Origin: an uncultured Thiomicrospira sp.
GTDB lineage: Bacteria > Pseudomonadota > Gammaproteobacteria > CAKMZV01
Length of the DNA stretch: 64,000 nucleotides
Assembly: GCA_965195345.1 (NCBI GenBank)
Contig: OZ239628.1
Coordinates: 352,001 to 416,000, forward strand
Reading direction: 5' to 3'
Made by a program: the position numbers and the translations under genes. The notes below the pieces were generated by a model. It had not been told where the DNA came from. It saw nothing but the letters and a program-made list of their open reading frames with translations, and did no database searches. This document shows, one piece after another, positions 45,559 to 58,149 of this stretch (positions within the stretch are counted from its first letter, which is position 1; each line of letters opens with the position of its first letter).

Positions 45559-45939
45559 ATGAACACTATGAAATTAAGAATTTGGGGGAATAAGATTCGC
45601 TTGCGTCTTAGAACGGATGATTTTGATGCATTGCTCAGTGGTGATGGGGTTGTTGAACATATGCTTGAGATGCCAAGCGAGCAAAGTTTCATGTATCGAT
45701 TGAAGGTAAGCAATGGCGAAAAAAAGGTCGATCCAATTTTTAAAAATGGTGTGCTTGATGTAGTCGTACCGATGAAAGCATTAGAGGCTTTGCTCAATTC
45801 GCCCGAACAAGAAGGACTGCATTATCAATTTGATACAGCAGGTACGCCATTAAAGGTTGCTGTTGAGAAAGATTTTCCGTGTCAACATGACCATGTTGAT
45901 GAACCGAATGATTATTCAACGTGCTTTGACAGATTTTGA
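45559..45939 (+). CDS. Conserved hypothetical protein (DUF7009-like)
   Basis: N-terminal MKLRIWGNKIRLRL and C-terminal VEKDFPC resemble a small uncharacterized family; the gene sits inside the FDH operon. Confidence 0.65.
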   Translation: MNTMKLRIWGNKIRLRLRTDDFDALLSGDGVVEHMLEMPSEQSFMYRLKVSNGEKKVDPIFKNGVLDVVVPMKALEALLNSPEQEGLHYQFDTAGTPLKVAVEKDFPCQHDHVDEPNDYSTCFDRF

Positions 45940-46403
45940 AGCCAATAGTTAGAGAGAATGCAATGAGTATTGAAGCTATTATTGATAAATGGATTGACCA
46001 GTCAGGTCCTTTGTTGCCTATTTTGCTTGATGTCAAGAAAGAATATGGCTCTATCAGTGATGAGGCAATCGATGAGATAAGTAAAGGGCTAAATTTAAGC
46101 CGTGCTGAAGTATATGGAGTGGTTAGCTTTTATGAAGATTTTCATCGTGACTCCCTCGTAAATTCTAAGGCAAAGCGCATTATAAAAGTATGCACTGCTG
46201 AAGCTTGTCAAGCTCAGGGTTGTCGTACGCTGGTCAACCAGTTGGAAGAAAAACACAAGCAGAAACTCAATGAGAAAGGAACAGATATCACTATTGAGTC
46301 GGTGTATTGTCTAGGAAACTGTGCGTTAGGTCCGAGTGTGATGTTAGGAGATTGCGTTTTTGGTAGAGCAACTTTGGAGAAAGTAGATAAATGGATAGCG
46401 TAA
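45936..46403 (+). CDS. fdsG: NAD-dependent formate dehydrogenase gamma subunit (NuoE-like, 2Fe-2S)
   Basis: NLSRAEVYGVVSFY, VCTAEACQA, VYCLGNCALGP. The true start may be the ATG at 45963. Confidence 0.93.
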   Translation: MKPIVRENAMSIEAIIDKWIDQSGPLLPILLDVKKEYGSISDEAIDEISKGLNLSRAEVYGVVSFYEDFHRDSLVNSKAKRIIKVCTAEACQAQGCRTLVNQLEEKHKQKLNEKGTDITIESVYCLGNCALGPSVMLGDCVFGRATLEKVDKWIA

Positions 46404-47917
46404 AATTTTATATTCCATTCGACACCAGTGCAGTTTCTGTAGGAGCAAGCGCGGTGGCTGAGGCTGTGATGAAGGCTTATCCAAACACAACGATTGTACG
46501 TAATGGATCACATGGTGCTTTATGGCTTGAGCCTTTGGTTGAAGTGGAAAGCAAAGGCGTTCGATATGCTTTTGGCAATTGTTCTGTTGAATGCGTTAGC
46601 ACATTGATTCAAAATGGTGCGATTAATACGCAACATGAAAACTATCTGGGTGAGACAAAATCTCTTGATTTCTTTGCTAGTCAAAAGCGGGTAGTGTTTG
46701 ATAAGTGTGGCTGGATTGATCCTTTTGATTTCTCTCAGTGGTCAGCATATGGAGGAGGCGTTGGTTTAAGACATGCTGTTCAAATATCTGGTCAAGAAAT
46801 TATAGACAATGTTAAGTCTTCAGGACTGCGCGGACGTGGAGGCGCAGCGTTTCCAACGGGAATAAAATGGCAGACGGTACATGATGCGCAAGCAGATCAG
46901 AAATACATAGTGTGCAATGCCGATGAAGGTGATAGCGGAACGTATGCTGATCGAATGCTGATGGAAGGGGATCCACTAACACTCATAGAAGGGATGGCAA
47001 TTGCTGGCGTTGCAGTCAATGCAACAGTAGGATTTATTTACATTCGCTCAGAATATCCAATTGCCATTAAGCACTTTAAGAAAGCCATTCTGTTGGCTTA
47101 TGAGAACAACATGTTAGGGCGCGATATATTCGGTAGCGGCAAGCACTTTGATATGGAAATTCGCGAGGGGGCGGGTGCGTATATATGCGGTGAAGAAACA
47201 TCGTTATTGGAAAGCCTTGAAGGAAAACAAGGCACGATTCGTTTTAAACCACCATTGCCAGCTTTGGAAGGGATGCTGGGTAAACCAACGGTTGTTAATA
47301 ATGTCATTAGCCTTGCGAGTTGTCCGTATATATTGTCTAATCCGGGAAATTTTGAAAAGCTAGGTTGCAATCGTTCAACAGGAACGTTGACTGTACAACT
47401 ATGTGGGAATGTTAGACATGGTGGTTTGTATGAAATGGAATTTGGTTTTAATTTGAAAGATATGGTTGAGCAGATAGGTGGCGGTACGCTAACTGGCAAA
47501 CCAGTGCGTACTATGCAAGTAGGAGGCCCGCTTGGTCCGTATTTGCATCCAGACGAATTTGATACTCCGTGTGATTATGAAGAATATGCAGCGAAGAAGT
47601 TGATGATTGGACATGGAGGAGTAGTTGTTTTTGATGATGATGTTGATATGAGTGAACAAGCTAAGTTTTCTATGCAATTTTGTGCGGATGAGTCTTGTGG
47701 AAAATGCACTCCTTGTCGCATTGGGTCAACGCGTGGGGTAGAATTGATTGCTGCTATTCAAAAAGGTGAGAAAAGACAGCATTACAAATTAGTTTTAGAA
47801 GAATTGTGCGATACGATGGAAAAAACATCTTTATGCGCAATGGGGGGGCTGACACCGATGCCCGTTATGTCAGCAGTAAATAAATTCCCTACTGACTTTG
47901 GGTTTGAAAAAGATTAG
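46391..47917 (+). CDS. fdsB: NAD-dependent formate dehydrogenase beta subunit (NuoF-like)
   Basis: WLEPLVEV, GLRGRGGAAFP, NADEGDSG, GAYICGEETS, ESCGKCTPCRIG. Confidence 0.95.
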   Translation: MDSVKFYIPFDTSAVSVGASAVAEAVMKAYPNTTIVRNGSHGALWLEPLVEVESKGVRYAFGNCSVECVSTLIQNGAINTQHENYLGETKSLDFFASQKRVVFDKCGWIDPFDFSQWSAYGGGVGLRHAVQISGQEIIDNVKSSGLRGRGGAAFPTGIKWQTVHDAQADQKYIVCNADEGDSGTYADRMLMEGDPLTLIEGMAIAGVAVNATVGFIYIRSEYPIAIKHFKKAILLAYENNMLGRDIFGSGKHFDMEIREGAGAYICGEETSLLESLEGKQGTIRFKPPLPALEGMLGKPTVVNNVISLASCPYILSNPGNFEKLGCNRSTGTLTVQLCGNVRHGGLYEMEFGFNLKDMVEQIGGGTLTGKPVRTMQVGGPLGPYLHPDEFDTPCDYEEYAAKKLMIGHGGVVVFDDDVDMSEQAKFSMQFCADESCGKCTPCRIGSTRGVELIAAIQKGEKRQHYKLVLEELCDTMEKTSLCAMGGLTPMPVMSAVNKFPTDFGFEKD

Positions 47918-47934
47918 GAAATCTGGAGATCGCC

Positions 47935-50718
47935 ATGAAATATATTGACTTGACAGACTACGGAACGCCTGTTTCAAAAAATACTACTATGGTCAATTTG
48001 ACTATAGATGGCGTTAATGTTAGGGTTGCAGAAGGGACGAGTTTGATGCGTGCTGCAATCGAAGGGGGAATTCATATCCCTAAACTGTGCGCAACGGATT
48101 CACTTAATCCTTTTGGCTCATGTCGTTTGTGTATGGTTGAAATAGTCGGTCGTCCTAATCCAGTTGCTTCGTGTCATACGAATGTGACTGAAGGGCTAAT
48201 TATTCGCACACAAAACGAACAATTGGCGAAGTGGCGTAAGAATCTTATGGAGTTGTACATATCTGATCATCCTTTAGATTGTTTGACTTGTGCCGCTAAT
48301 GGCGATTGTGAGCTACAGGATATGGCAGGAGTGGTTGGCTTGCGTGATGTGCGTTATCCTAAAGGAGGCATAACGCATTTGGAGCAAGAAAAAGACGAAT
48401 CCAATCCTTATTTCACATTTGACCCAAGCAAGTGTATTTTGTGCTCTCGTTGTGTGCGTGCTTGCGATGAGGTGCAAGGAACATTAGCGTTAACCATAGA
48501 AAAGCGAGGATTTAACTCAAAAGTTTCAGTGGCAAATGTTGACTTTATGGCTTCTGATTGCGTTTCGTGTGGCGCATGTGTTCAAGCCTGTCCAACAGCT
48601 ACGTTGATGGAAAAAAGTGTTATTGCATTCGGTTTGGGTGAGAACAAAACAATTACCACTTGTGCTTATTGCGGAGTAGGTTGTAATTTTGTTGCACACA
48701 CTCAAGGCGAACAAGTGACGCACATGGTGCCTTATAAAGACGGGAAAGCGAACCATGGTCACTCTTGTGTTAAAGGGCGATTTGCTTGGCAATATGCGAC
48801 CCATGAAGAACGAATAACAAAACCTTTAGTCCGTGAGAGTATTCATGATGAATGGAGAGAGGTTAGTTGGGATGAAGCTTTTGAGTTTGCTGCAACAAGG
48901 TTGAAGAATATCCAAGAAAAATACGGTGTTGATTCGATTGGAGGTATTACTTCGTCGAGGTGTACTAATGAGGAAACCTATTTGGTGCAAAAACTCGTAC
49001 GAGCTACTTTTAAAAATAACAATGTTGATACTTGTGCTCGAGTTTGTCATTCACCCACAGGATATGGACTAAAACGTACTTTTGGAGCATCGGCAGGCAC
49101 TCAAAATTTTGACTCAGTACAGCATACTGATTTGATCTTTGTAGTTGGAGCCAACCCTACGGATGCGCATCCAGTGTTTGGATCTCGTATGAAACGTCGT
49201 TTGCGTGAAGGGGCGCAGTTAATAGTGCTTGATCCACGGCAAATAGATTTGGTCAAAAGTCCTCATATTAAAGCGAATGTGCACTTGCCCCTAACTCCAG
49301 GAACAAATGTTGCTGTTCTTAATGCTATCGCTCACACGATCGTTAAGGAAGGACTGCAAGATCAAGATTTTATAAGCAAACGCTGTGATTTAGACACCTT
49401 TAAAGATTGGCTAACCTTTATTCAACATGAAAAAAATGCACCTGAGACGATCGCCTCTCAATCAGGACTGGACGTAAATGACATTAAAAAAGCAGCAAGG
49501 CTGTATGCTAAAGCACCGAATGCTGCGATTTACTATGGGTTGGGAGTTACGGAGCATTCGCAAGGGTCTTCAACAGTAATGGCAATAGCTAATTTGGCAA
49601 TGTTGACAGGGAATATTGGTCGAGAAGGTGTTGGTGTTAACCCATTACGTGGACAAAATAATGTACAGGGCGCATGTGATATGGGTTCTTTCCCTCATGA
49701 GTTGCCCGGTTATCGTCACGTTGGTGATCCTAAAGTACGCGAATTATTCGAATCAGAGTGGGATGTTGAATTGTCCGCTGATCCTGGATTGCGCATTCCT
49801 AATATGTTTGATGCCGCCACTGCTGGTTGGTACAAAGGCATGTATATTCAGGGTGAAGACTTAGTGCAATCTGATCCGAACTCTCATCATGTGATAAAGG
49901 CCTTTGAAAACATGGAGTGCGTTATAGTCCATGATCTGTTTTTGAATGAAACGGCTAAATACGCACATGTTTTTTTTCCAGGAGCTTCCTTTTTGGAAAA
50001 AGATGGAACATTTACTAACGCAGAAAGGCGTGTTAATCGTGTTCGTAAAGTCATGTCACCGTTAGGTGGTATGTCAGAGTGGGAAGTAATCTGTGCTTTA
50101 GCAAAAGCAATGGGGTACTCAATGGAGTACAACCATCCTAGTGAAATCATGGATGAAATTGCGCGAACTACTCCAGGATTTGCTAATGTAAGCTATGACT
50201 TGCTTGATGAGAAAGGAAGTATTCAATGGCCTTGCAATGACGCATCACCAGAAGGGACGCCTATTATGCACCAAGAATATTTTGTGCTTGGTAAAGGACA
50301 TTTTATCAATACTGAATACGTGCCCACAAGTGAAAAAACCAATCGTAAATATCCCTTATTACTTACTACTGGACGAGTATTGCATCACTATAACGTAGGC
50401 ACACAAACGAGGCGCACGGCCAATTCAAAGTGGCAACCAGAAGACATATTAGAAATTCATCCAAGCGATGCGGAGTCAAGAGGTATTGTTGACGATATGC
50501 GCGTTGCAGTCACTTCACGCTCAGGTGAAACTTATTTGCACGTGCGCGTTTCAGAAAAAATGGAACCAGGTGTTGTTTATACAACTTTTCATTTTCCAGA
50601 AAGCAATACCAATGTTATTACTACGGATAATTCAGATTGGGCAACAAACTGTCCCGAGTACAAGGTGACGGCTGTGGAAGTTCGTCCTCATGATCAGGCT
50701 ATTCCTAAAGTTGGGTGA
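47935..50718 (+). CDS. fdsA: NAD-dependent formate dehydrogenase alpha subunit (Mo-bisPGD, Cys-ligated)
   Basis: N-terminal Fe-S motifs, CAYCGVGC, active site DTCARVCHSPT, RGQNNVQG, CPEYKVTAV. Confidence 0.97.
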   Translation: MKYIDLTDYGTPVSKNTTMVNLTIDGVNVRVAEGTSLMRAAIEGGIHIPKLCATDSLNPFGSCRLCMVEIVGRPNPVASCHTNVTEGLIIRTQNEQLAKWRKNLMELYISDHPLDCLTCAANGDCELQDMAGVVGLRDVRYPKGGITHLEQEKDESNPYFTFDPSKCILCSRCVRACDEVQGTLALTIEKRGFNSKVSVANVDFMASDCVSCGACVQACPTATLMEKSVIAFGLGENKTITTCAYCGVGCNFVAHTQGEQVTHMVPYKDGKANHGHSCVKGRFAWQYATHEERITKPLVRESIHDEWREVSWDEAFEFAATRLKNIQEKYGVDSIGGITSSRCTNEETYLVQKLVRATFKNNNVDTCARVCHSPTGYGLKRTFGASAGTQNFDSVQHTDLIFVVGANPTDAHPVFGSRMKRRLREGAQLIVLDPRQIDLVKSPHIKANVHLPLTPGTNVAVLNAIAHTIVKEGLQDQDFISKRCDLDTFKDWLTFIQHEKNAPETIASQSGLDVNDIKKAARLYAKAPNAAIYYGLGVTEHSQGSSTVMAIANLAMLTGNIGREGVGVNPLRGQNNVQGACDMGSFPHELPGYRHVGDPKVRELFESEWDVELSADPGLRIPNMFDAATAGWYKGMYIQGEDLVQSDPNSHHVIKAFENMECVIVHDLFLNETAKYAHVFFPGASFLEKDGTFTNAERRVNRVRKVMSPLGGMSEWEVICALAKAMGYSMEYNHPSEIMDEIARTTPGFANVSYDLLDEKGSIQWPCNDASPEGTPIMHQEYFVLGKGHFINTEYVPTSEKTNRKYPLLLTTGRVLHHYNVGTQTRRTANSKWQPEDILEIHPSDAESRGIVDDMRVAVTSRSGETYLHVRVSEKMEPGVVYTTFHFPESNTNVITTDNSDWATNCPEYKVTAVEVRPHDQAIPKVG

Positions 50719-51103: not shown

Positions 51104-52333
51104 ATGTTTTTTTCATGTAATAAGATAAAGAAAGATGTTTTTAAATCTTCAAAGATGCTTTTTTTGGGAGCATACTTTGTTATTTTATTGTCATCTGCTT
51201 TCATGACATTACCCGCGAATGCCGACGAACACGAACAGGCTACAGAAACCTCAACAAATACTATTCAGCCAAGAGAACAAGCAAAAAAAGAAAATCCAGA
51301 GGTGCTGCCCTCTCACTTGCCGATTAAGAATATTCAATTCACTCCCTCTAAAAAAGAAAAAATTTTCTTTCATCATAACGATGAAAGAGACGAAGAACTT
51401 AGGGTGATCATATTGCAACAATTATTTGATCCTCTATTATGGGAAAAGGCAAAAGTGAGCGCCATACAGTCAAAAATTGAATCTGCTTATATTGTTTATG
51501 ATGATTCTAAAGGGGAGCGACAACATAGCCCTGATTTTTACGATAGCTTAGAAAGCGCTCTGCTTAAAAAGATGGTTCAAACTACAGATATATCATTCAA
51601 AGGATGTGCTTACTCTTGTGTGCAGAAAAAAACAATCACCATAACACAAAGTCGCTTGATTATTAGTACGAAGAACTTAAATAGACGCATTCGAAAAGAA
51701 ATTGAATCGGGTGAAGTACAGGGCATTTTAAAATGGAGTTTCTTCTCAAATGCAGCTGGCAGTAAAGGAGGAATATCTGTTAGCCTACTCAATGCAAACA
51801 ATAAGATTGTTTGGACCGATACGATTTTTGCAGACATTAATGAGTTAATAGTAGCTGACGAAAACAAAGCGTCAGAAGGTGAAAGCCAATTAGGTATAGC
51901 ATTGATGAGTCAGAGAATTCAGTTTGAAGAAGGAACGGATCCAGTAACAGAATCAAACCAAAATGTTGTGGTGAGTTTTGGTTATAGAGAACGCATTACA
52001 CCGTTCACCAGACTTAAATATTATTTAGGGGGGCGTGTGCTGTATAGCACTGGTTTAGCAAATAACTATTTTGCCATTTCAGCGAGTGCTCGTATAGGTT
52101 ATACCATTTTTAATCTGCCCAAACGCGACGTTGATTTTTTCATAGGATTCGAGCAAGACCTCATATTAGTTCAAGGATTTAATGGCACACTTGCTGTAGA
52201 TTGGCAGCTGAGTGATGCTTTTTATTTGCGAGGGATTTATGAGCTGCCGTTGGATTCAGAACGCACAGATAATTTTGGTCAAGAGTATACCCTTAGTCCG
52301 GGTTTTTTGTTAGAAATGGGGGTTAAACTGTGA
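51104..52333 (+). CDS. Hypothetical secreted protein: alpha/beta periplasmic domain plus C-terminal outer-membrane beta-barrel
   Basis: Signal-peptide cleavage site ...LPANA|DE; alternating amphipathic strands in the C-terminal ~160 aa ending LLEMGVKL; GTGA overlap with the next gene. The start may be the ATG at 51155. Confidence 0.7.
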   Translation: MFFSCNKIKKDVFKSSKMLFLGAYFVILLSSAFMTLPANADEHEQATETSTNTIQPREQAKKENPEVLPSHLPIKNIQFTPSKKEKIFFHHNDERDEELRVIILQQLFDPLLWEKAKVSAIQSKIESAYIVYDDSKGERQHSPDFYDSLESALLKKMVQTTDISFKGCAYSCVQKKTITITQSRLIISTKNLNRRIRKEIESGEVQGILKWSFFSNAAGSKGGISVSLLNANNKIVWTDTIFADINELIVADENKASEGESQLGIALMSQRIQFEEGTDPVTESNQNVVVSFGYRERITPFTRLKYYLGGRVLYSTGLANNYFAISASARIGYTIFNLPKRDVDFFIGFEQDLILVQGFNGTLAVDWQLSDAFYLRGIYELPLDSERTDNFGQEYTLSPGFLLEMGVKL

Positions 52334-52899
52334 ACGGGCTTAAAATATTATTTATCATCTCTGCAGTGATTTTTTTGTCAGGCTGCAGTTCAACAGAAGA
52401 GTTACAAACTTTGGATGCGGGCAGAGCAATCAAAGAGGGAGACGGTAAGGAAAATCTACCCTCGTCATTAATTGTTGAAAATGGCGTTATTTTTTTTAGA
52501 AAAGAAAGTGGTGGTGAAAAAATCGAATTTATTTTTAATATTGGTGAAAATGAAAACATCGAGTACGAGATAGAATTTGCTCCCCCTGAGAAAGAAAAGA
52601 GCGATCATCTTCCTGCCCAAAATAGTACCTCTGTAAGTGGCGAGTCTAAAAAGCTTGCGGATCGATTATTCCTATCTGCACAAGGCTATTTTTTAGAAGG
52701 AAATTATCGTCGAGCTTTGGTTGAGGTTAATCGAGCGCTACGAGAAGACATGAAGTCTGGACTTCTTTGGGCTTTAAAGGGTTCCATACACTATAAGCTT
52801 AATGAATTTGGATTGGCACGCAATGCATGGAGTAAGTCGCAGGAATTAGACAAAGATATTACAGGCGTTCGAGAAATGTTATTAAAAATAGGGACGTAA
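52330..52899 (+). CDS. TPR-repeat lipoprotein
   Basis: Lipobox LSGC with +2 Ser; TPR-like AQGYFLEGNYRRALVEVNRAL and LWALKGSIHYKLNEFGLARNAWSKSQELD. Confidence 0.8.
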   Translation: MNGLKILFIISAVIFLSGCSSTEELQTLDAGRAIKEGDGKENLPSSLIVENGVIFFRKESGGEKIEFIFNIGENENIEYEIEFAPPEKEKSDHLPAQNSTSVSGESKKLADRLFLSAQGYFLEGNYRRALVEVNRALREDMKSGLLWALKGSIHYKLNEFGLARNAWSKSQELDKDITGVREMLLKIGT

Positions 52900-52927
52900 T
52901 TAAGAATTAATTTGTGAGTATGAAACC

Positions 52928-55111
52928 ATGAAAAGTTTTTTTGTAAAAATCATAGCAAATGTAGTCACTATTTTTGTGATTGCCGTTACGGGGGTACATG
53001 CACAAGAGATTGAACGAGCAGGGCAAGTAGATGCCATAAAGCAGAGTGTTTTTGAGCGGGATTTGGAAAATAATATTAGCAGTGCGCTCAGGTTACAGCT
53101 CGGTAGCATTCCTTTTTTGGTTCAAGTGAGTGCTGAATTGCGCTCGATAAAAACATACGCGATTGATACTGTCTCCATATATCAGCCGAGTTCTGTTGAA
53201 GCGCCTTCTCTTGAAAGTAAAAAAACAATTGTGAGACAACAGCTGCAAGAAGTTGATGCTGGTAGAACGAATCAAAACATTGATCCTGCTGACGATGGAG
53301 GCCAAGGTATTTCAAATGCTTTGCCAGGAGCCCCAATTCTTTTGACGAATAGTGACGATGGATCTGAGCAAAATCAGCCGAGAAGAAGTCAACCTATAAC
53401 TGAGGTCATTCAATCAACTGAGCCTATCAGTGAAGCGTCAGAAAGTCAACCGAGAAGTGTTGGTCGATTTGTGAATACCACCCGTGAAACGTTCATTGAA
53501 AGTCATGTGTTAATTGACAGAATTGACGTCAAGCTATGGCTTCCATCTGATTTGGAACCTAGTAGAATTCGTTTTCTCAAACACTTGGTTTCTGAAAAAG
53601 CAAGAATTAATTTAATAAGGGGCGATCAGTTTACAACTATTTTAACAAATTTTCCAGAAACTGAAAAAAAGGAAGATACCCTAACAACTAACCAGAATAG
53701 CTCAACTGAGTCTATAAATATTGATAATATTGGTCGGAGAATAGGATTAGATAGAGTAGTAAGTGAGCTGAGTCAAAACAATTGGTTACCTTGGGCGCTT
53801 GCTGGGTTACTCTTTTTATGGTTATTGTTTTTGCTTTTCCGCAAAAAAAGAACCGCGCATCACCAACCGCCGATCGCAACGTACCATCACAGCGATGTTC
53901 CATTTAACCCTCCATCATTAACGAACATCAACCCTCCTGAATCCGCATCTCTTGAAGATAAACAACAAGATCACGAACATAAACAGCGATTGAAAATTCT
54001 TAATGAAGACATAGTGAGTAATATCATGCTGCATGAAGGGTTGTTGCTGAATGCGCTAAATAACCCTAACCTTGCAATAGAAAAAGTACGATTTACGGCT
54101 TGGTTGATTAAATTGCTTGGCACAGCCGTGGTTGCAAAGTATGCATATGATCAGCTTAATGAAAGCGAATTAAAAAACGCGAATGCGTTGCAAGAAGTTA
54201 TTGAACAAAGCACATTGATAGAACAATGTGAATGGGCAGCAAAGGTGCATAGAAGCTTACGCGATAGTGAGTCGCTTTCTAATAAAAATATTTCCCAACC
54301 TTTTGATTTCTTAAATGAAATGAATGATCAGAAATTGAAACGCTTGCTAAATGAAGAGCATGTGCAGGCAAAAGCACTGATACTTTCTCAAATTGATCAA
54401 CGACGCTCGGCAGCAATCCTTGCTATGTTTTCTGCTGAGGAACAAGCAAGTATTGCCATAGCAATGGGGAAACTTACGACACTTCCAGTATCTTCATTTC
54501 ATGACATAGCTAATCAATTAGCTCGTAAGGCTCAAAGCATTCCAGAAGTAAATGAGCTTAACATTGATGGAACGGAAGCGCTAGTGCAGATGATAGAGTC
54601 CATGGATTTGGCGAATGGAACAGCGTTCCTGAATGAATTGAGAAAACAAAATCCTGATCAATATTATCGCATTAAGAAATTGTATATGGGCTTTGAGGAT
54701 ATTCCAAAAATTCCGAAGGCTATATTGAAAAACTTTTTGCGTGAAATTGAACGAGAAGAGTTGGTTACGGCACTGTACGATGAGGAAGATGCTTTTAGAG
54801 AACAGTTACTCAGTGCGCTTCCTGATCGAGCAAAGGCATTAGTTCAGCAGTTATTGAGTGAAATACAAACACCAACTGCAGCAAAGATTATGCAATCGAA
54901 AAAAATGATTAGCACCAAAGCAAGGCAGTTATTGCGAGCTAAAGTATTTGAATTACCAACAGATGAAGAGACCTTCACAGCGTCTTCAACATCTGAAGCA
55001 GGGCTACAAGAAGAGTCTATAGTTCCCTCTATAGAGGTTGAGTCAAGGCTTTCGGAAGAGTCAAACACAGGGTCAAGAAGCTCCTCAAACCTTAATAACT
55101 TAGAAAAATGA
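52928..55111 (+). CDS. FliF(RBM3)-TM-FliG fusion protein
   Basis: Signal peptide VHA|Q; FliF RBM3-like FERDLENNISSAL...VQVSAEL and IDRIDVKL...LKHLVSEKARINLIRGDQF; one TM helix; FliG-M PFDFL...EHVQAKALILS; FliG-C YMGFED...LREIE...ALPDRA. Confidence 0.85.
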   Translation: MKSFFVKIIANVVTIFVIAVTGVHAQEIERAGQVDAIKQSVFERDLENNISSALRLQLGSIPFLVQVSAELRSIKTYAIDTVSIYQPSSVEAPSLESKKTIVRQQLQEVDAGRTNQNIDPADDGGQGISNALPGAPILLTNSDDGSEQNQPRRSQPITEVIQSTEPISEASESQPRSVGRFVNTTRETFIESHVLIDRIDVKLWLPSDLEPSRIRFLKHLVSEKARINLIRGDQFTTILTNFPETEKKEDTLTTNQNSSTESINIDNIGRRIGLDRVVSELSQNNWLPWALAGLLFLWLLFLLFRKKRTAHHQPPIATYHHSDVPFNPPSLTNINPPESASLEDKQQDHEHKQRLKILNEDIVSNIMLHEGLLLNALNNPNLAIEKVRFTAWLIKLLGTAVVAKYAYDQLNESELKNANALQEVIEQSTLIEQCEWAAKVHRSLRDSESLSNKNISQPFDFLNEMNDQKLKRLLNEEHVQAKALILSQIDQRRSAAILAMFSAEEQASIAIAMGKLTTLPVSSFHDIANQLARKAQSIPEVNELNIDGTEALVQMIESMDLANGTAFLNELRKQNPDQYYRIKKLYMGFEDIPKIPKAILKNFLREIEREELVTALYDEEDAFREQLLSALPDRAKALVQQLLSEIQTPTAAKIMQSKKMISTKARQLLRAKVFELPTDEETFTASSTSEAGLQEESIVPSIEVESRLSEESNTGSRSSSNLNNLEK

Positions 55112-55887
55112 AAACACTAATTAGTCGATTAATAGCAATGGCTTTGGTAGGGTACGCAGCTTACAGCATTATTGTTTTTCCAGAGCATACAGCTCTTTTT
55201 ACGCATGCAGAATCAGTGATTTTGGTATTGGGTGGTACATTCGCAGCAAGCCTGATGAGCTTTAATATTGAGACAATATTGAAGGCATTTTTAAGCTTTT
55301 TTAAAGGTCTTATTTATGCCTCAGACAATCAGTCAAAGATCAGAGAAATAAAAGAAATCATTACAATTGCAGAACGCGTTAATGAAACAAACGGATTCGG
55401 ATGTATTGATGATATGTTAGAACAAAAAAAAAAATATTCAGATTTTGTGCGATTAGGATTAGAGCTGATTTCTGCGGGTTACAGCGAAGTTGGACTTAGA
55501 GTACAGCTAACAAATTTTGCAGATGAACTAGATGAAGAAGAGCGTTTGATGGAAGACGTTTGGTTTCAATTTGCAAACTATGCTCCAGCTTTGGGAATGG
55601 TTGGAACAGTTATAGGGTTGATTCTTATGTTGGATAATCTTGATGTCAATAGTTTAAATATTGGAGCTGGACTTTCATTGGCACTGTTGACTACTTTGTA
55701 CGGTGTTTGTATAGCGAACTTTATTTTCAAACCAACTGCTCGGTTTTTAGCTGAAGAACGATTGAAAAAATCCAGAAATTTAGCACTTTATTTAGAAGCA
55801 ATGCTAATGGTACAAAAAAAAACAAGTCCAATTTTAATGAAAGATTACTTAAATAGTAGCTTGCCTATTAAATTGCAATTAAAGTAA
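55108..55887 (+). CDS. MotA/PomA-like stator subunit
   Basis: SVILVLGGT, YAPALGMVGTVIGLILML, ALLTTLYG...ANFIFKP; ATGA overlap with the FliF-FliG gene. Confidence 0.92.
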   Translation: MKTLISRLIAMALVGYAAYSIIVFPEHTALFTHAESVILVLGGTFAASLMSFNIETILKAFLSFFKGLIYASDNQSKIREIKEIITIAERVNETNGFGCIDDMLEQKKKYSDFVRLGLELISAGYSEVGLRVQLTNFADELDEEERLMEDVWFQFANYAPALGMVGTVIGLILMLDNLDVNSLNIGAGLSLALLTTLYGVCIANFIFKPTARFLAEERLKKSRNLALYLEAMLMVQKKTSPILMKDYLNSSLPIKLQLK

Positions 55888-55903
55888 TGTTAAGAATAAG
55901 CCT

Positions 55904-55932
55904 AAAATCAACTTCTGTGAAGATTGATTTTT
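55904..55932 (+). terminator. Hairpin with U-tail between the motA-like and motB-like genes
   Basis: AAAATCAA-CTTC-TGT-GAAG-A-TTGATTTT(T). Confidence 0.4.
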
Positions 55933-55953
55933 CGTAACTAAGGATACGGCTTC

Positions 55954-56673
55954 ATGAATTCAGTTTTACGCAAAAAAAAGTCTATCAATAGAACAGATAA
56001 CCTTTGGTTAATAACCTATTCAGATGTTGTGACGTTACTGTTGGTTTTTTTTGTGCTAATCATCGCTTTTTCAGTCGTTGATCAATCTAAATTTGAAGTG
56101 ATTGCTGAAGCCATAAAAGCAAATAAGTTCGATGGGAAAAAGACGCTTCCTTTTCAAAAATTTGAACAAGAATTGCAAAAAATTATCGAAAAAAATGATT
56201 TAGAAGAAAAGGTTGTTGTAAATAAACAACCTCTAGGCGTTAGTATTGAACTTTCTGGTGAAAGTCTATTCCAATCTGGAGAAGCTATTTTGAATGCAAC
56301 GGGTAGCCTCGCAATAAAACAATTAGCGAAGGCTATAAAAAACATTGAATATCCTAACTATCAAGTAGAGATTGAAGGACATACCGATGATGTGCCAATA
56401 AATAATGAGAAATACTCTTCCAATTGGGAATTGTCTGTCTTTCGCGCCATTGATGTGCTTAAGCTGTTAACAGAGCAGGGAATACCCAATGATAAATTCA
56501 AAATAGCTGGTTACGGAGAAACAAAACCTAAATATTCAAATGAAACGGCTGATGGTTTACCTAATGTCGCTAACAGAGCTAAAAACAGACGAATAGAGAT
56601 TAATGTTTTTCGTAAGGAGCGGCGTTATAGGGAATCGTCAACAAAAGAGGAAAATCAAAACACAGAAAAGTAG
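55954..56673 (+). CDS. MotB/PomB-like stator subunit with OmpA-type peptidoglycan-binding domain
   Basis: TM WLITYSDVVTLLLVFFV with the conserved Asp; LFQSGEA, IEGHTDDVP, NWELSVFRA, GYGETKP, NRRIEI. Confidence 0.95.
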   Translation: MNSVLRKKKSINRTDNLWLITYSDVVTLLLVFFVLIIAFSVVDQSKFEVIAEAIKANKFDGKKTLPFQKFEQELQKIIEKNDLEEKVVVNKQPLGVSIELSGESLFQSGEAILNATGSLAIKQLAKAIKNIEYPNYQVEIEGHTDDVPINNEKYSSNWELSVFRAIDVLKLLTEQGIPNDKFKIAGYGETKPKYSNETADGLPNVANRAKNRRIEINVFRKERRYRESSTKEENQNTEK

Positions 56674-56733
56674 TTTTTATAATATTTTTTGATTTTTGGC
56701 ACGCATTGAGACTATTTTTAAGCAGGTTCTAAA

Positions 56734-58149
56734 ATGCAAAGAAAGGGTATGGGATTCATATTTAACCGAATAAATGCTCTTACTTTTTCTAGTATGAGAA
56801 AAAAAAATCCAATTCTACTGGTCTGCTCTTTTGTGGTGTTTCTCTCCTTCCCTATAAAAGCAACGAGCAATTTTCAACCTTCCCAATTGAGAACTTTGTT
56901 TAATCCTGCCGCTGAGAATCCATCAGCAGCAGTTATCTACAGTTACTTATTCAATGATAGTGATATCGGGTTGCAAGTATATGGAGAAGCGCAAGGACTA
57001 GTAGAAAACACCATAGATGAGAATCAACTTCTAATGGAGTTGAACGGTATTATAAATTCTAATATTGGCGTTAATTCTATTAATCAATTTGAAACACAAA
57101 TAAATAATTTCCTTAGAACTACTCAACCTATTCTTCGTGGTAATGCAAACGCAATCCTCGCTTTTCGAAAAGGATCAAATACAAAAAAAACTGCTGTCAC
57201 TCTTAGTTATGATGATAGTCTCTTGTACTATCAACAATTGCGATTTATCAATGGCGTTGATGTTGATGTGCCGGCAGTAACAGCCTTAATTGCGGGCAAC
57301 ACGACCATTGATTCTGCAGATTTTTTGAACGCTATTGATACTGATGTGGGCATTAATAATACATTGGCACGTATCAGAACGTTCAGCTTAGGATATAGCC
57401 ATCGCTACACGATTAATCCAATAATTAAATTCAGCTATGGTGTGCGTTTTAAAGCACAATCGGCATCTATTTCTTCAAACTTGGTGGACTTTCGAACAGT
57501 TATATCCACGACCAATGAGGTAGTTCAGTTAGAAAGTGCTGATATATTTGGAAATTTTGACACAGCAAACGAGCATATATATGGTAATGTTGATTTAGCT
57601 CTAACATTGCATGGAAGACAATATTTTATAAGCATATACTCACTGGATACCATACCGCAAAGGTTAGCATTACCAAGTTTTTCCGATACATGCGAGTCTG
57701 TAAATGATTGTGCTATATCAGCACTGTATCCAAATGGGAATGAGTTTTTTTATATCGACCCTAAAGTGCGTTTTGAATACAGCTATCTGTCACGACGCAA
57801 GCAATTTCGCTTTAGCTTTTTGTACGATATACTCCCTTGGAGAGATGGAAGTACTGCCGAGCGCCAACTGCTAACTATCCATACTGAAATTGCGACGACT
57901 AAGCGAAACACTAATAGACCCTATTGGGGACATCCCTCCCCTTCGATAAGGCTATCTGCTTTTATAGATGATGCTTCTTCTTTCGTGAATGATACTCTTA
58001 TTCAGACAGGGTTCAGTGCATGGTTTATAGATTTAAACTTCACATTTGGCTTTAGAAAACCAGGTATATTAGTCTCTAGACCATCTAGAATTGAGAACAG
58101 CAGGACACTTCTACGCGGCATTCAGTTGGGAGTTAACGTTGATTTTTAA
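56734..58149 (+). CDS. Putative outer-membrane beta-barrel protein, TraF_2-like
   Basis: Signal peptide ending PIKA; LFNPAA near the mature N-terminus; amphipathic strands such as TFSLGYSHR and FSYGVRFK; C-terminal GVNVDF (BAM-type terminal Phe). Confidence 0.55.
   Translation: MQRKGMGFIFNRINALTFSSMRKKNPILLVCSFVVFLSFPIKATSNFQPSQLRTLFNPAAENPSAAVIYSYLFNDSDIGLQVYGEAQGLVENTIDENQLLMELNGIINSNIGVNSINQFETQINNFLRTTQPILRGNANAILAFRKGSNTKKTAVTLSYDDSLLYYQQLRFINGVDVDVPAVTALIAGNTTIDSADFLNAIDTDVGINNTLARIRTFSLGYSHRYTINPIIKFSYGVRFKAQSASISSNLVDFRTVISTTNEVVQLESADIFGNFDTANEHIYGNVDLALTLHGRQYFISIYSLDTIPQRLALPSFSDTCESVNDCAISALYPNGNEFFYIDPKVRFEYSYLSRRKQFRFSFLYDILPWRDGSTAERQLLTIHTEIATTKRNTNRPYWGHPSPSIRLSAFIDDASSFVNDTLIQTGFSAWFIDLNFTFGFRKPGILVSRPSRIENSRTLLRGIQLGVNVDF

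Follow-up and report, generated by a model that had tools for sequence, protein, structure and literature searches.

The flagellar motor is the textbook rotary nanomachine, and its rotor and stators are regarded as specific to the flagellum. The present work concerns a stretch of 64,000 nucleotides (positions 352,001 to 416,000 of contig OZ239628.1; hereafter the window) from the genome of an uncultured Thiomicrospira sp. (assembly GCA_965195345.1), in which a gene at 52928-55111 encodes the S-ring half of the rotor protein FliF joined in frame to a complete FliG. An earlier note on this sequence had read the gene as a natural FliF-FliG fusion that lacks RBM1 and RBM2 and would build the whole rotor ring at a fixed 1:1 stoichiometry, with no type III export gate inside. 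Beyond that reading, the analysis reported here places the fusion in a conserved operon together with MotAB, a lipoprotein and outer membrane (OM) proteins, in a flagellum-less host, and identifies it as a member of a large unannotated family.

The flagellar rotor and stator are the first systems with which this locus has to be compared. Homologous parts include RBM3 with its collar, the second transmembrane helix (TM2) and the tail of FliF, the N, M and C domains of FliG, the PomA architecture of the stator, and a rotor-stator charge pair of the R281/E98 type. Unlike in the flagellar rotor, RBM1 and RBM2 are missing, the first transmembrane helix of FliF may not be retained, FliF and FliG form one polypeptide, and the EHPQ motif of FliG is not conserved. 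Moreover, unlike flagellar FliF, the fusion has OMP1, a lipoprotein, MotAB and OMP2 as neighbours instead of flagellar genes, in a genome without export gate or rod families. Engineered FliF-FliG fusions of Salmonella and Vibrio (PDB 8z4d/8z4g) assemble S-rings of 34-35 subunits (PMC11481574), and an engineered fusion is also presented in PMC6079021. As in the protein studied here, the C-terminus of FliF is joined in them to the N-terminus of FliG, and they show that a 1:1 fused rotor can form. However, they contain the complete FliF (945 amino acids, RBM1-3) and operate in a normal flagellum, whereas the present fusion is natural, lacks RBM1 and RBM2 and occurs without a flagellum.

A natural fusion has been described in the Chlamydiaceae (Bergeron 2016, PMC4768692). 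According to the cited part of that paper, this protein of approximately 330 amino acids contains an RBM2-like region of SctJ homology and one RBM-like stretch, with no SpoIIIAG-like domain, its cytosolic part consists of FliG_M only, and it co-occurs with FlhA and an injectisome, with no MotAB operon described there. Both proteins are natural, combine a truncated FliF with FliG-like sequence and belong to bacteria that are not thought to be flagellated. In its composition, nevertheless, the present fusion is the converse of the chlamydial one: of the periplasmic modules it has just RBM3 and the collar, its FliG is complete, a stator is encoded next to it and FlhA is absent. SpoIIIAG, which forms a channel ring in Firmicutes sporulation, shares the RBM3-like fold with a β-collar insertion; however, it is matched much more weakly than FliF and has neither a FliG domain nor a stator.

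A further group for comparison comprises the envelope machines driven by 5:2 motors of the MotAB family, namely Tol-Pal (TolQ-TolR-TolA-TolB-Pal-CpoB), ExbBD-TonB, AglRQS-Glt gliding, GldLM/T9SS and Zorya, and to our knowledge none of them uses a FliF/FliG rotor. Like Tol-Pal-type machines, the operon would link an ion-driven inner-membrane motor through a periplasmic transducer to OM lipoproteins and barrels, and it resembles Tol-Pal itself in its TolB-N/LpoB-like and OmpA-like folds and its TPR lipoprotein. Unlike the present operon, all these machines use 'generic' (GIT) stators without a plug and an OmpA-like anchor, following the clades of a 2025 stator phylogeny that names the plug-plus-OmpA clade flagellar ion transporters, 'FIT' (PMC12505986). 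No published description was found of a natural RBM3-only FliF-FliG fusion with MotAB, supplements and subscription journals being outside the scope of that search.

The fusion gene (P0001) is composed of the following parts, given in coordinates of the window.

52928-55111, plus strand: FliF(RBM3-collar)-FliG fusion, 727 amino acids, ATG start, open reading frame (ORF) intact
52928-53002, plus strand: N-terminal hydrophobic segment, residues 1-25, either a Sec signal peptide (VHA followed by Q) or a retained first transmembrane helix (TM1)
53033-53185, plus strand: RBM3 helix α1 and first long strand (β1 into the collar), residues 36-86, from the AlphaFold2 (AF2) model and hhalign
53186-53464, plus strand: flexible low-complexity loop at the top of the collar, residues 87-179, with a predicted local distance difference test score (pLDDT) of ~46-66 per 10-residue block
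53321-53329, plus strand: near-invariant LPG motif within that loop, residues 132-134
53465-53647, plus strand: returning collar strand, RBM3 α2 and β3, residues 180-240, from AF2
53618-53626, plus strand: RGD motif, residues 231-233, aligned to the RGD of FliF
53783-53839, plus strand: transmembrane helix equivalent to FliF TM2, residues 286-304
53840-54076, plus strand: cytoplasmic linker equivalent to FliF's C-terminal tail, residues 305-383, placed by the family profile with no residue-level alignment
54077-54262, plus strand: FliG N-terminal domain, residues 384-445, from hhalign (the TAWLIKLLG... segment)
54329-54544, plus strand: FliG middle domain, residues 468-539, PF14841 at 6.2e-12, above cut-off
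54635-54940, plus strand: FliG C-terminal (torque) domain, residues 570-671, PF01706 at 9.8e-17, above cut-off
54965-55111, plus strand: C-terminal Ser/Glu-rich tail, residues 680-727 (48 residues) and stop codon, beyond the FliG match

The similarity of the N-terminal half to FliF is far above chance. When compared with PDB sequences, a profile of 43 relatives (set A1) finds Salmonella FliF (6scn_A) at E 2.1e-10, profile positions 29-311 aligning with FliF residues 226-558 of 560 and thus with RBM3, collar, TM2 and C-terminal tail. A second FliF (8z5s) is found at 2e-7 and the FliF-FliG fusion 8z4d is the top PDB match (2.9e-48), whereas SpoIIIAG is matched weakly (E 0.049, versus 2e-10 for FliF). 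Moreover, hhalign comparison of the 119-member family (A4) with the C-terminal halves of 13 genuine FliF proteins yields Prob 98.1 and E 1.1e-13 over 142 columns spanning query residues 37-245, the genuine references (13 FliF, 12 FliG) coming from flagellated relatives of the same class. In this alignment, FERDLENN...VQVSAEL corresponds to α1-β1 of FliF RBM3, the LPG motif of the family falls on GVPGALSN of FliF, and IDRIDVKLWL...LIRGDQFTTILTNF matches the ...RGD...F block. These motifs are strongly conserved among the 119 members (L132 in 113, P133 in 117 and G134 in 113; G232 in 110 and D233 in 113). The FliF-like part is visible only by profile or fold, because residues 1-456 of the query alone have no Pfam match at E<=10, and YscJ_FliF_C (PF08345) is therefore not reached; among the A1 relatives taken singly, a smaller set picked as matches aligning over the N-terminal or middle part, PF08345 matches 13 of 43 (best 7e-8).

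The fold points in the same direction. An AF2 model of residues 1-345, built on a 119-row alignment (mean pLDDT 73, predicted template modelling score 0.49), has a core above 90 pLDDT with the topology α-β-(loop)-β-α-β, in which a helix (36-58) and a long strand (64-86; block pLDDT 89-98 for residues 31-80 and 79 for 81-90) are separated by the loop 87-179 from a second long strand (180-206), a helix (211-225) and a final strand (234-240), these last three at pLDDT 92-98. An α-β-β-α-β RBM3 with a collar hairpin and an unseen top loop has been described for the S-rings of Vibrio and Salmonella (PMC11481574). In a Foldseek search of the PDB, the model obtains 18 matches at E<=0.001, and all 18 are FliF MS-ring, S-ring or RBM3 chains (E 2e-8 to 1e-5; template modelling score ~0.5 per target for RBM3-only entries), SpoIIIAG being ranked 19th (E 0.03, target-based score 0.48). 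In front of this domain, only ~10 residues lie in the model between the N-terminal segment and RBM3 α1, whose start has its family median at residue 44; therefore, RBM1 and RBM2 are absent. The N-terminal segment itself (MKSFFVKIIANVVTIFVIAVTGVHA, residues 1-25, followed by QE) is modelled as a helix at 2-26 and has a hydropathy segment at 5-23, and an Ala precedes Q/E at the aligned position in five of six close relatives; it may be removed as a Sec signal or, as with the TM1 of FliF, stay in the membrane. A single transmembrane helix follows the RBM3 domain, at 286-304 by hydropathy and at 286-308 in the model.

The cytoplasmic half is a complete FliG. Aligned by hhalign with the 12 genuine FliG proteins, the family gives Prob 99.9 and E 4e-33, query residues 384-676 corresponding to FliG residues 8-328 of 336, and the A1 profile matches the FliG_N chain 5tdy_B (4.5e-5) at positions directly after the FliF match. 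Among the A1 relatives, FliG_N is recognized by Pfam in 31 of 43, and FliG_M and FliG_C in all 43. The closest solved sequence relatives are middle/C-terminal structures of Thermotoga FliG (T. maritima 3ajc, 5.4e-13), while the TIGR00207 model scores 75 bits against an equivalog cut-off of 226.7. The Ser/Glu-rich tail has no counterpart in FliG and is not conserved among close relatives. Where FliG_M has EHPQ, part of the FliM-binding EHPQR motif, the fusion has EHVQ. Of these four residues, the family keeps just the E (109 of 119 members), while H, P and Q vary; this lack of conservation fits the absence of FliM from the genome.

Consequently, what the earlier note had read from the letters holds in each of its parts: the ORF is intact and free of stops, the hydrophobic segment is present, the start of RBM3, the RGD-type block and the single transmembrane helix lie where it had put them, and the insert with collar strands and SNALPGAP, which it had likened to GVPGALSN, is flanked by the two long strands and aligned at LPG. 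Its join between the FliF C-terminus and the FliG N-terminus is recovered as well, the FliF alignment reaching residue 558 of 560 and the FliG match starting at query residue 384, and the FliG-M and FliG-C domains are those given above. The RBM fold of the periplasmic region, on which it had made its reading depend, is returned as FliF both by profile and by structure. Finally, the fixed 1:1 ratio of FliF to FliG follows from the covalent fusion in a single polypeptide.

The genome that carries this gene is a single contig of 1,920,693 bp with an estimated completeness of 99.71%. Whole-genome Pfam searches for YscJ_FliF (PF01514), FHIPEP (FlhA), FliP, FliMN_C, Flg_bb_rod and Flagellin_N gave 0 matches each, while 4 of 14 control genomes were positive in each of these searches. 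FliG_C occurs once in the genome, in the fusion gene, and MotA_ExbB occurs three times, as a strong Tol/Exb-type match (7e-38), as the neighbour of the fusion and as one weak match. Thus, an export apparatus, a rod, hook-type rod-family proteins, flagellin and FliM/FliN are all missing from the genome, which agrees with the earlier proposal of a rotor without export gate and without RBM1/RBM2. The same situation prevails around it, given that all five genomes of the order lack FlhA, while flagellated relatives exist within the class. Among the nine fusion-bearing genomes tested, FHIPEP is absent from eight and present in G466.

The fusion gene lies among six same-strand genes (51104-58149), all with intact ORFs, which are separated by gaps of 28-66 nucleotides apart from two overlaps of 4 nucleotides. 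The other genes of the operon are as follows.

51104-52333, plus strand: OMP1, 409 amino acids, no Pfam/NCBIfam match, 4-nucleotide overlap with the lipoprotein gene
52330-52899, plus strand: lipoprotein, 189 amino acids, lipobox ...LSGC with Ser at +2, TPR_2 at 2.5e-6, LPAM_1
55108-55887, plus strand: MotA/PomA-like stator A subunit, 259 amino acids, MotA_ExbB at 2.4e-17, 4-nucleotide overlap with the stop of the fusion
55954-56673, plus strand: MotB-like stator B subunit, 239 amino acids, MotB_plug at 2.3e-15, OmpA at 3.4e-19
56734-58149, plus strand: OMP2, 471 amino acids, signal peptide, ending in ...VNVDF, no Pfam/NCBIfam match

The MotA protein aligns end to end with PomA of Vibrio (8brd/8bri, 1.2e-24; residues 12-251 versus 8-241), a full-length match that provides the four transmembrane helices and the large cytoplasmic torque domain of a stator A subunit. 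All NCBIfam models of flagellar MotA, PomA and MotP match it below their equivalog cut-offs, with PomA at 3.3e-33 (115 bits, cut-off 341). The MotB protein matches the NCBIfam model MotD (1.4e-48, 166 bits, cut-off 283), and its channel Asp is D24, as read from the sequence. A plug and an OmpA-like domain distinguish flagellar-type B subunits from those of Tol/Exb type (PMC12505986). The PomA architecture, the plug, the channel Asp and the peptidoglycan-binding domain thus assign the predicted stator to the flagellar type.

The lipoprotein consists of a lipobox, a small conserved β-rich module and a C-terminal TPR pair; all 35 aligned homologues (35 of 35) share its Cys19, and no other partner accompanies the fusion as constantly. 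OMP1 is predicted to contain a signal peptide, a disordered linker, a periplasmic α/β domain (~92-256) and an 8-stranded barrel of OmpA/NspA type (~257-409), in an AF2 model built on an alignment with relatives (mean pLDDT 67.7). In the VIA comparison, it matches NspA (1p4t; Z 13.3, rmsd 3.0, 140 amino acids), OprF-N (Z 12.5) and OmpW (Z 11.7), these matches lying on the barrel (residues 252/256/259-409) and barely covering the periplasmic domain. In Foldseek, the latter domain matches the LpoB C-domain (4q6l, E 2.4e-3, target-based score 0.50) and TolB (4r40, E 1e-5, with a template modelling score of just 0.17), and its Atlas look-alikes are TolB_N/LpoB/CsgG, as a lead only. OMP2 is probably a larger OM barrel. 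It is confined to the clade of the window (G000, G004), with a syntenic homologue in locus L022 (2e-67), and in the Atlas it resembles TraF_2/PorP_SprF clusters (score 0.97, 204 of 256 features), again as a lead only. Complex prediction for the periplasmic domain of the fusion (26-285) and the lipoprotein (20-189) scored 0.13 and 0.12 against a mark of 0.32, which has no bearing either way.

In metagenomic loci, the place of OMP1 is taken by F6, a protein of ~355 amino acids with a signal peptide and a C-terminal ...LGVRF. A full-length alignment of OMP1 and F6 shows 17-20% identity and 11 invariant columns, including C168-x3-C172, and hhalign alone gives Prob 12% and P 0.0024; neither OMP2 and F6 nor OMP1 and OMP2 are similar by hhalign. 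As a separate observation, the F6 family (L048:7097-8164) has a sub-threshold Pfam match to FlgT_M (E 0.0087, 16.7 bits, cut-off 31.2), which is the middle domain of FlgT from the H-ring of Vibrio, a lead according to which the OM partner may relate to flagellar outer-ring proteins.

To explore the distribution of the fusion, 1.84 billion cluster representatives were searched exhaustively with phmmer, which returned 2227 matches at E<=0.001 and 31 at E<=1e-30; the best 150 of them are mostly 560-780 amino acids long and align over much or all of the query. When clustered at 50% identity, the fusion family forms 119 clusters or more. Where its members are named publicly, they are called 'hypothetical protein', under the labels Gammaproteobacteria, Saccharospirillaceae and Pseudomonadales, and a related locus found with a 3-sequence-alignment search is labelled as a Gammaproteobacteria metagenome-assembled genome. 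Family members are present in all five species genomes of the order. A sample of 400 genomes of the class contains the fusion in seven, including that of the window, while an even sample of 400 genomes of the phylum contains it in the genome of the window and in no other.

Synteny extends over large distances. In G004 (same family, other genus), all six genes are found in identical order; in G033, from another family, lipoprotein, fusion, MotA and MotB are syntenic; and G685 has the standard gene order. The lipoprotein adjoins the fusion in G004, G033, G466, G522 and G685, while in G756 it lies ~1.2 kb upstream. When metagenomes were scanned with a subfamily that shares just ~23% identity with the query, 56 loci were obtained, 47 of them with the fusion at E<1e-20, and neighbours were counted in loci with at least 400 nucleotides of flank. 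MotA lies directly downstream of the fusion in 38 of 40 (a scripted count of 36 plus L070 and L072, where MotA overlaps the end of the fusion by 4 nucleotides), MotB comes next in 30 of 32, and in 37 of 40 the gene directly upstream is that of the lipoprotein. Three loci deviate, namely L087 and L091, with no adjacent MotAB, and the frameshifted L086. On their GC-rich contigs, L087 (8749-13660) and L091 present a variant layout, in which the fusion is followed by a 560-amino-acid TPR protein and an F6-type protein. In G466 (L107, G466:C79, 7413-12961), the same five genes are reordered on one strand as MotA-MotB-F6-lipoprotein-fusion; this 4.4 Mb genome also encodes an FHIPEP (FlhA/SctV-type) protein, so that the module, although mostly found without that apparatus, can coexist with it. 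A five-gene module of OMP1/F6, lipoprotein, fusion, MotA and MotB is thus kept together across very distant relatives.

Other neighbours are restricted to particular lineages. Downstream of MotB in G033 (L025:12329-15872) lie genes for a MoxR AAA ATPase, a DUF58 protein, a VWA protein and pilin-like proteins, a cluster of Bat/MoxR type, and L093 has the same gene families by clustering only. PhoX-like, MoxR, VWA and pilin neighbours were considered as parts of the system and set aside as lineage-specific.

The putative contact between rotor and stator can be followed residue by residue. R297 of E. coli FliG is one of the four classic charges of its torque helix. The other three are R281, D288 and D289 in E. 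coli numbering (PMC12505986). Position R281 is occupied in the fusion by R634, which is R or K in 103 of the 119 family members, and D101 of MotA stands at the position of PomA E96 (E. coli E98). In the 32 loci that hold both fusion and MotA, the E98 equivalent is always acidic (E in 30, D in 2) and the R281 equivalent always basic (K in 28, R in 4). An acidic residue occupies the D289 position in 30 of 32, and in the same 30 loci an Arg is found beside the R88/R90 equivalent of MotA. The window and its sister L022 are the only loci without this Arg and also the only ones without the acidic D289 equivalent. Such a paired change of charge is the pattern expected of contacting surfaces, as judged from the aligned sequences.

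With regard to the origin of the family, a quick maximum-likelihood tree of the FliG region separates 119 fusions from 19 canonical FliG proteins by one branch (SH-aLRT 100, length 1.0), which is compatible with a single origin of the fusion clade. The tree is unrooted and its canonical rows are from Pseudomonadota only; therefore, no direction is claimed, and the fusions may be derived from flagellar FliG or be its sister. Within the genus of the window, G001 (L024:8607-10931) and G002 (L023:8861-11176) contain an intact homologue of 771-774 amino acids with FliG_M and FliG_C amid unrelated neighbours (a Bmp ABC transporter, a KAP NTPase and DUF599); the G002 copy groups with the protein of the window on a long branch (0.91). 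Judging from these orphan copies, a stator of its own is not required for the fusion protein to be kept, and such family members either have a stator-independent role or are decaying. A degenerate paralogue of 642 amino acids is also encoded in the genome of the window (G000:C1:1257916-1259844, minus strand, equal to L028:8916-10844, minus strand), which begins with a signal-like segment, retains 'EKGD...ENFP' as a remnant of the RGD..FP block, and has one transmembrane helix and FliG_M (2e-12) but no FliG_C. It adjoins a 492-amino-acid Sel1-repeat protein and parE, and a similar copy of 643 amino acids is held by G002 (L027).

Taken as a whole, the operon at 51104-58149 is probably a free-standing, ion-driven rotor-stator machine coupled to OM partners and not a flagellum. 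In the proposed mechanism, approximately 30 or more copies of the fusion would assemble through RBM3 and collar into an inner-membrane ring, as FliF does, and since each subunit is one polypeptide, each would carry one FliG on the cytoplasmic face. MotAB units anchored to the peptidoglycan would conduct ions, push the torque helix of FliG_C through the pair formed by the acidic residue of MotA and R634 of FliG, and turn the ring. The equivalent collar loops of flagellar FliF touch rod proteins (PMC11481574, introduction). Here, the collar would have no rod, and its flexible LPG-bearing loops may engage the lipoprotein, the periplasmic domain of OMP1 or both, and the OM would thereby receive mechanical work powered by proton- or sodium-motive force. 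Possible outputs are surface movement, movement or remodelling of OM proteins, or secretion. CheY-type switching is not expected, given that there is no FliM, FliN or conserved EHPQ.

Several observations weigh against this mechanism. Ring formation is deduced from homology to the RBM3 of FliF, and rotation is likewise a deduction; the confidence of the AF2 model as a whole is moderate, and the Foldseek rmsd values are large owing to the disordered loop. The fusion of the window has Q641, L642 and A651 at the positions of D288, D289 and R297, so that three of the four classic torque charges are lost, its MotA has N at the position of PomA R88, and the two-sided charge change amounts to a single evolutionary event and not to statistics. 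MotAB is missing beside the fusion in G522, G756, L087 and L091, and the queries used detected neither a PomA-like MotA nor the lipoprotein or OMP1 in G001, G002 and G003. Lastly, the homology between OMP1 and F6 relies on the alignment at 17-20% identity with its shared invariant columns, and the lipoprotein and OMP1 are candidate partners of the collar only.

The best placed of the alternatives, although fairly unlikely, is a force transducer without a rotating ring, in which the fusion works as a monomer or small oligomer like TolA/TonB and the operon serves a Tol-Pal-like envelope maintenance assembled from flagellar parts; MotAB would pull on or rotate against the FliG-like domain, and RBM3 would relay the conformational change to the lipoprotein and OMP1. 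The parts do parallel those of Tol-Pal, with a 5:2-type stator, an inner-membrane transducer, the TolB/LpoB leads, an OmpA-like barrel and a TPR lipoprotein, and the FliM-binding EHPQ is not conserved. However, in all relatives with a solved structure (FliF and SpoIIIAG), RBM3 with collar is a module dedicated to building rings, and both long collar strands are predicted here at high confidence. Moreover, the stator is of flagellar type, with plug and OmpA-like anchor, and not of Tol/Exb type, of which the genome has a separate strong match (TolQ/ExbB-type, 7e-38), while the template modelling score of the TolB match is just 0.17.

It is improbable that the operon is an evolutionary leftover, i.e., the remnant of a lost flagellum or of a former motor that is now non-functional or a static scaffold and has survived by chance or in a minor structural role. 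This explanation would account for the lack of FlhA in the five genomes of an order whose class includes flagellated relatives, for G001, G002 and G003, which by the queries used keep just the fusion homologue (on a long branch of 0.91 in G002), for a torque helix in the window that is devoid of three classic charges, and for the degenerate FliG_M-only paralogue in the same genome. Nevertheless, the six ORFs are intact and tightly spaced, near-invariant motifs persist across at least 119 clusters, and the five-gene module is kept across subfamilies ~23% identical, even after reordering. Both rotor-stator charge pairs are maintained in 30 of the 32 loci, the single branch of the FliG tree (SH-aLRT 100) does not fit repeated independent decay, and G466 has the module together with FHIPEP, so that the module is not simply what remains after flagellar loss.

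Very improbable is a cryptic axial organelle, in which the ring would house or drive a diverged periplasmic or surface filament or an export conduit, encoded by OMP2 or unlinked genes, as a reduced flagellum- or pilus-like structure. The retention of the collar loop with its near-invariant LPG recalls flagellar loops that hold the rod (PMC11481574), OMP2 resembles TraF_2/PorP_SprF barrels, which are companions of surface-filament and adhesin systems (lead only), and in G033 the module has a pilin gene in its vicinity. Against it, the genome has no FHIPEP, FliP, rod-family or flagellin matches, RBM2, the holder of the export gate, is missing, OMP2 is limited to the clade of the window, and the pilin neighbour belongs to the MoxR/VWA cluster seen in L025 (in L093 by clustering only).

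With respect to the authenticity of the gene, which the earlier note had made its second point of doubt, a 727-amino-acid protein with 98% identity was found in another assembly, the only match of a word-indexed homologue search, and four public sequencing runs from one study and two samples contain the stretch. Contigs from the second sample span 52860-54006 and 53762-54111, among others, with 0 differences, no indels and no joints, although the coverage from runs X2-X4 is low and fragmentary; these contigs therefore extend from the transmembrane helix through the linker into the beginning of FliG_N. The same domain arrangement is seen again in 119 clusters, in 47 metagenomic loci and in eight other genomes, and with both lines of evidence the objection of an assembly artefact is removed. 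That a misassembly or frameshift joined two genes, for which no observation speaks, is thus hardly conceivable, considering the bridged junction between transmembrane helix and FliG_N, the 98%-identical protein elsewhere and the recurrence of the architecture.

At the DNA level, promoter and terminator scans of the sequence remained at chance level (24 found versus 22.6 expected and 5 versus 5.3, respectively), and there was no RNA run among the public sequencing runs containing the stretch. The GC content is 35-40% in the operon and 38-44% in its flanks, with no clear sign of horizontal transfer. Directly upstream of the operon lies another set of genes on the plus strand (45936-50718), an NAD-linked formate dehydrogenase operon with a gamma/NuoE-like, a beta/NuoF-like and a 927-amino-acid alpha subunit (TIGR01591, 1e-274), preceded by a DUF7009 protein (45559-45939).

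Considering the rotor-stator machine again as the preferred reading, it may tentatively be proposed, at somewhat less than even confidence, that the operon is the founding example of an undescribed class of bacterial rotary nanomachine, namely a minimal, self-contained FliF(S-ring)-FliG rotor turned by MotAB, whose collar drives or loads the TPR lipoprotein and OMP1/F6 apart from flagellar assembly or swimming; this would be the first non-flagellar use of a FliF/FliG rotor and a flagellar-type stator. A bolder corollary would be that such a rotor-only module resembles a stage at which a rotor with its stator either preceded the type III export apparatus or was separate from it.

In these bacteria, the rotor-stator core of the flagellar motor is found as a compact five-gene module with OM partners, in genomes lacking every other flagellar component searched and in one genome that has an FHIPEP protein as well. 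If the module rotates, genome-based motility predictors counting FliG or MotAB would be misled by it, and it would constitute a natural, minimal rotor made of one polypeptide, with a fixed 1:1 ratio of FliF to FliG, no C-ring and no export gate. Such a rotor would lend itself ideally to structural and single-molecule studies of how torque is generated and to the question of FliF/FliG symmetry. Rotor and export apparatus would then be separable in nature, which bears on the evolution of the flagellum, and the family would point to a rotation-powered process at the Gram-negative outer membrane.

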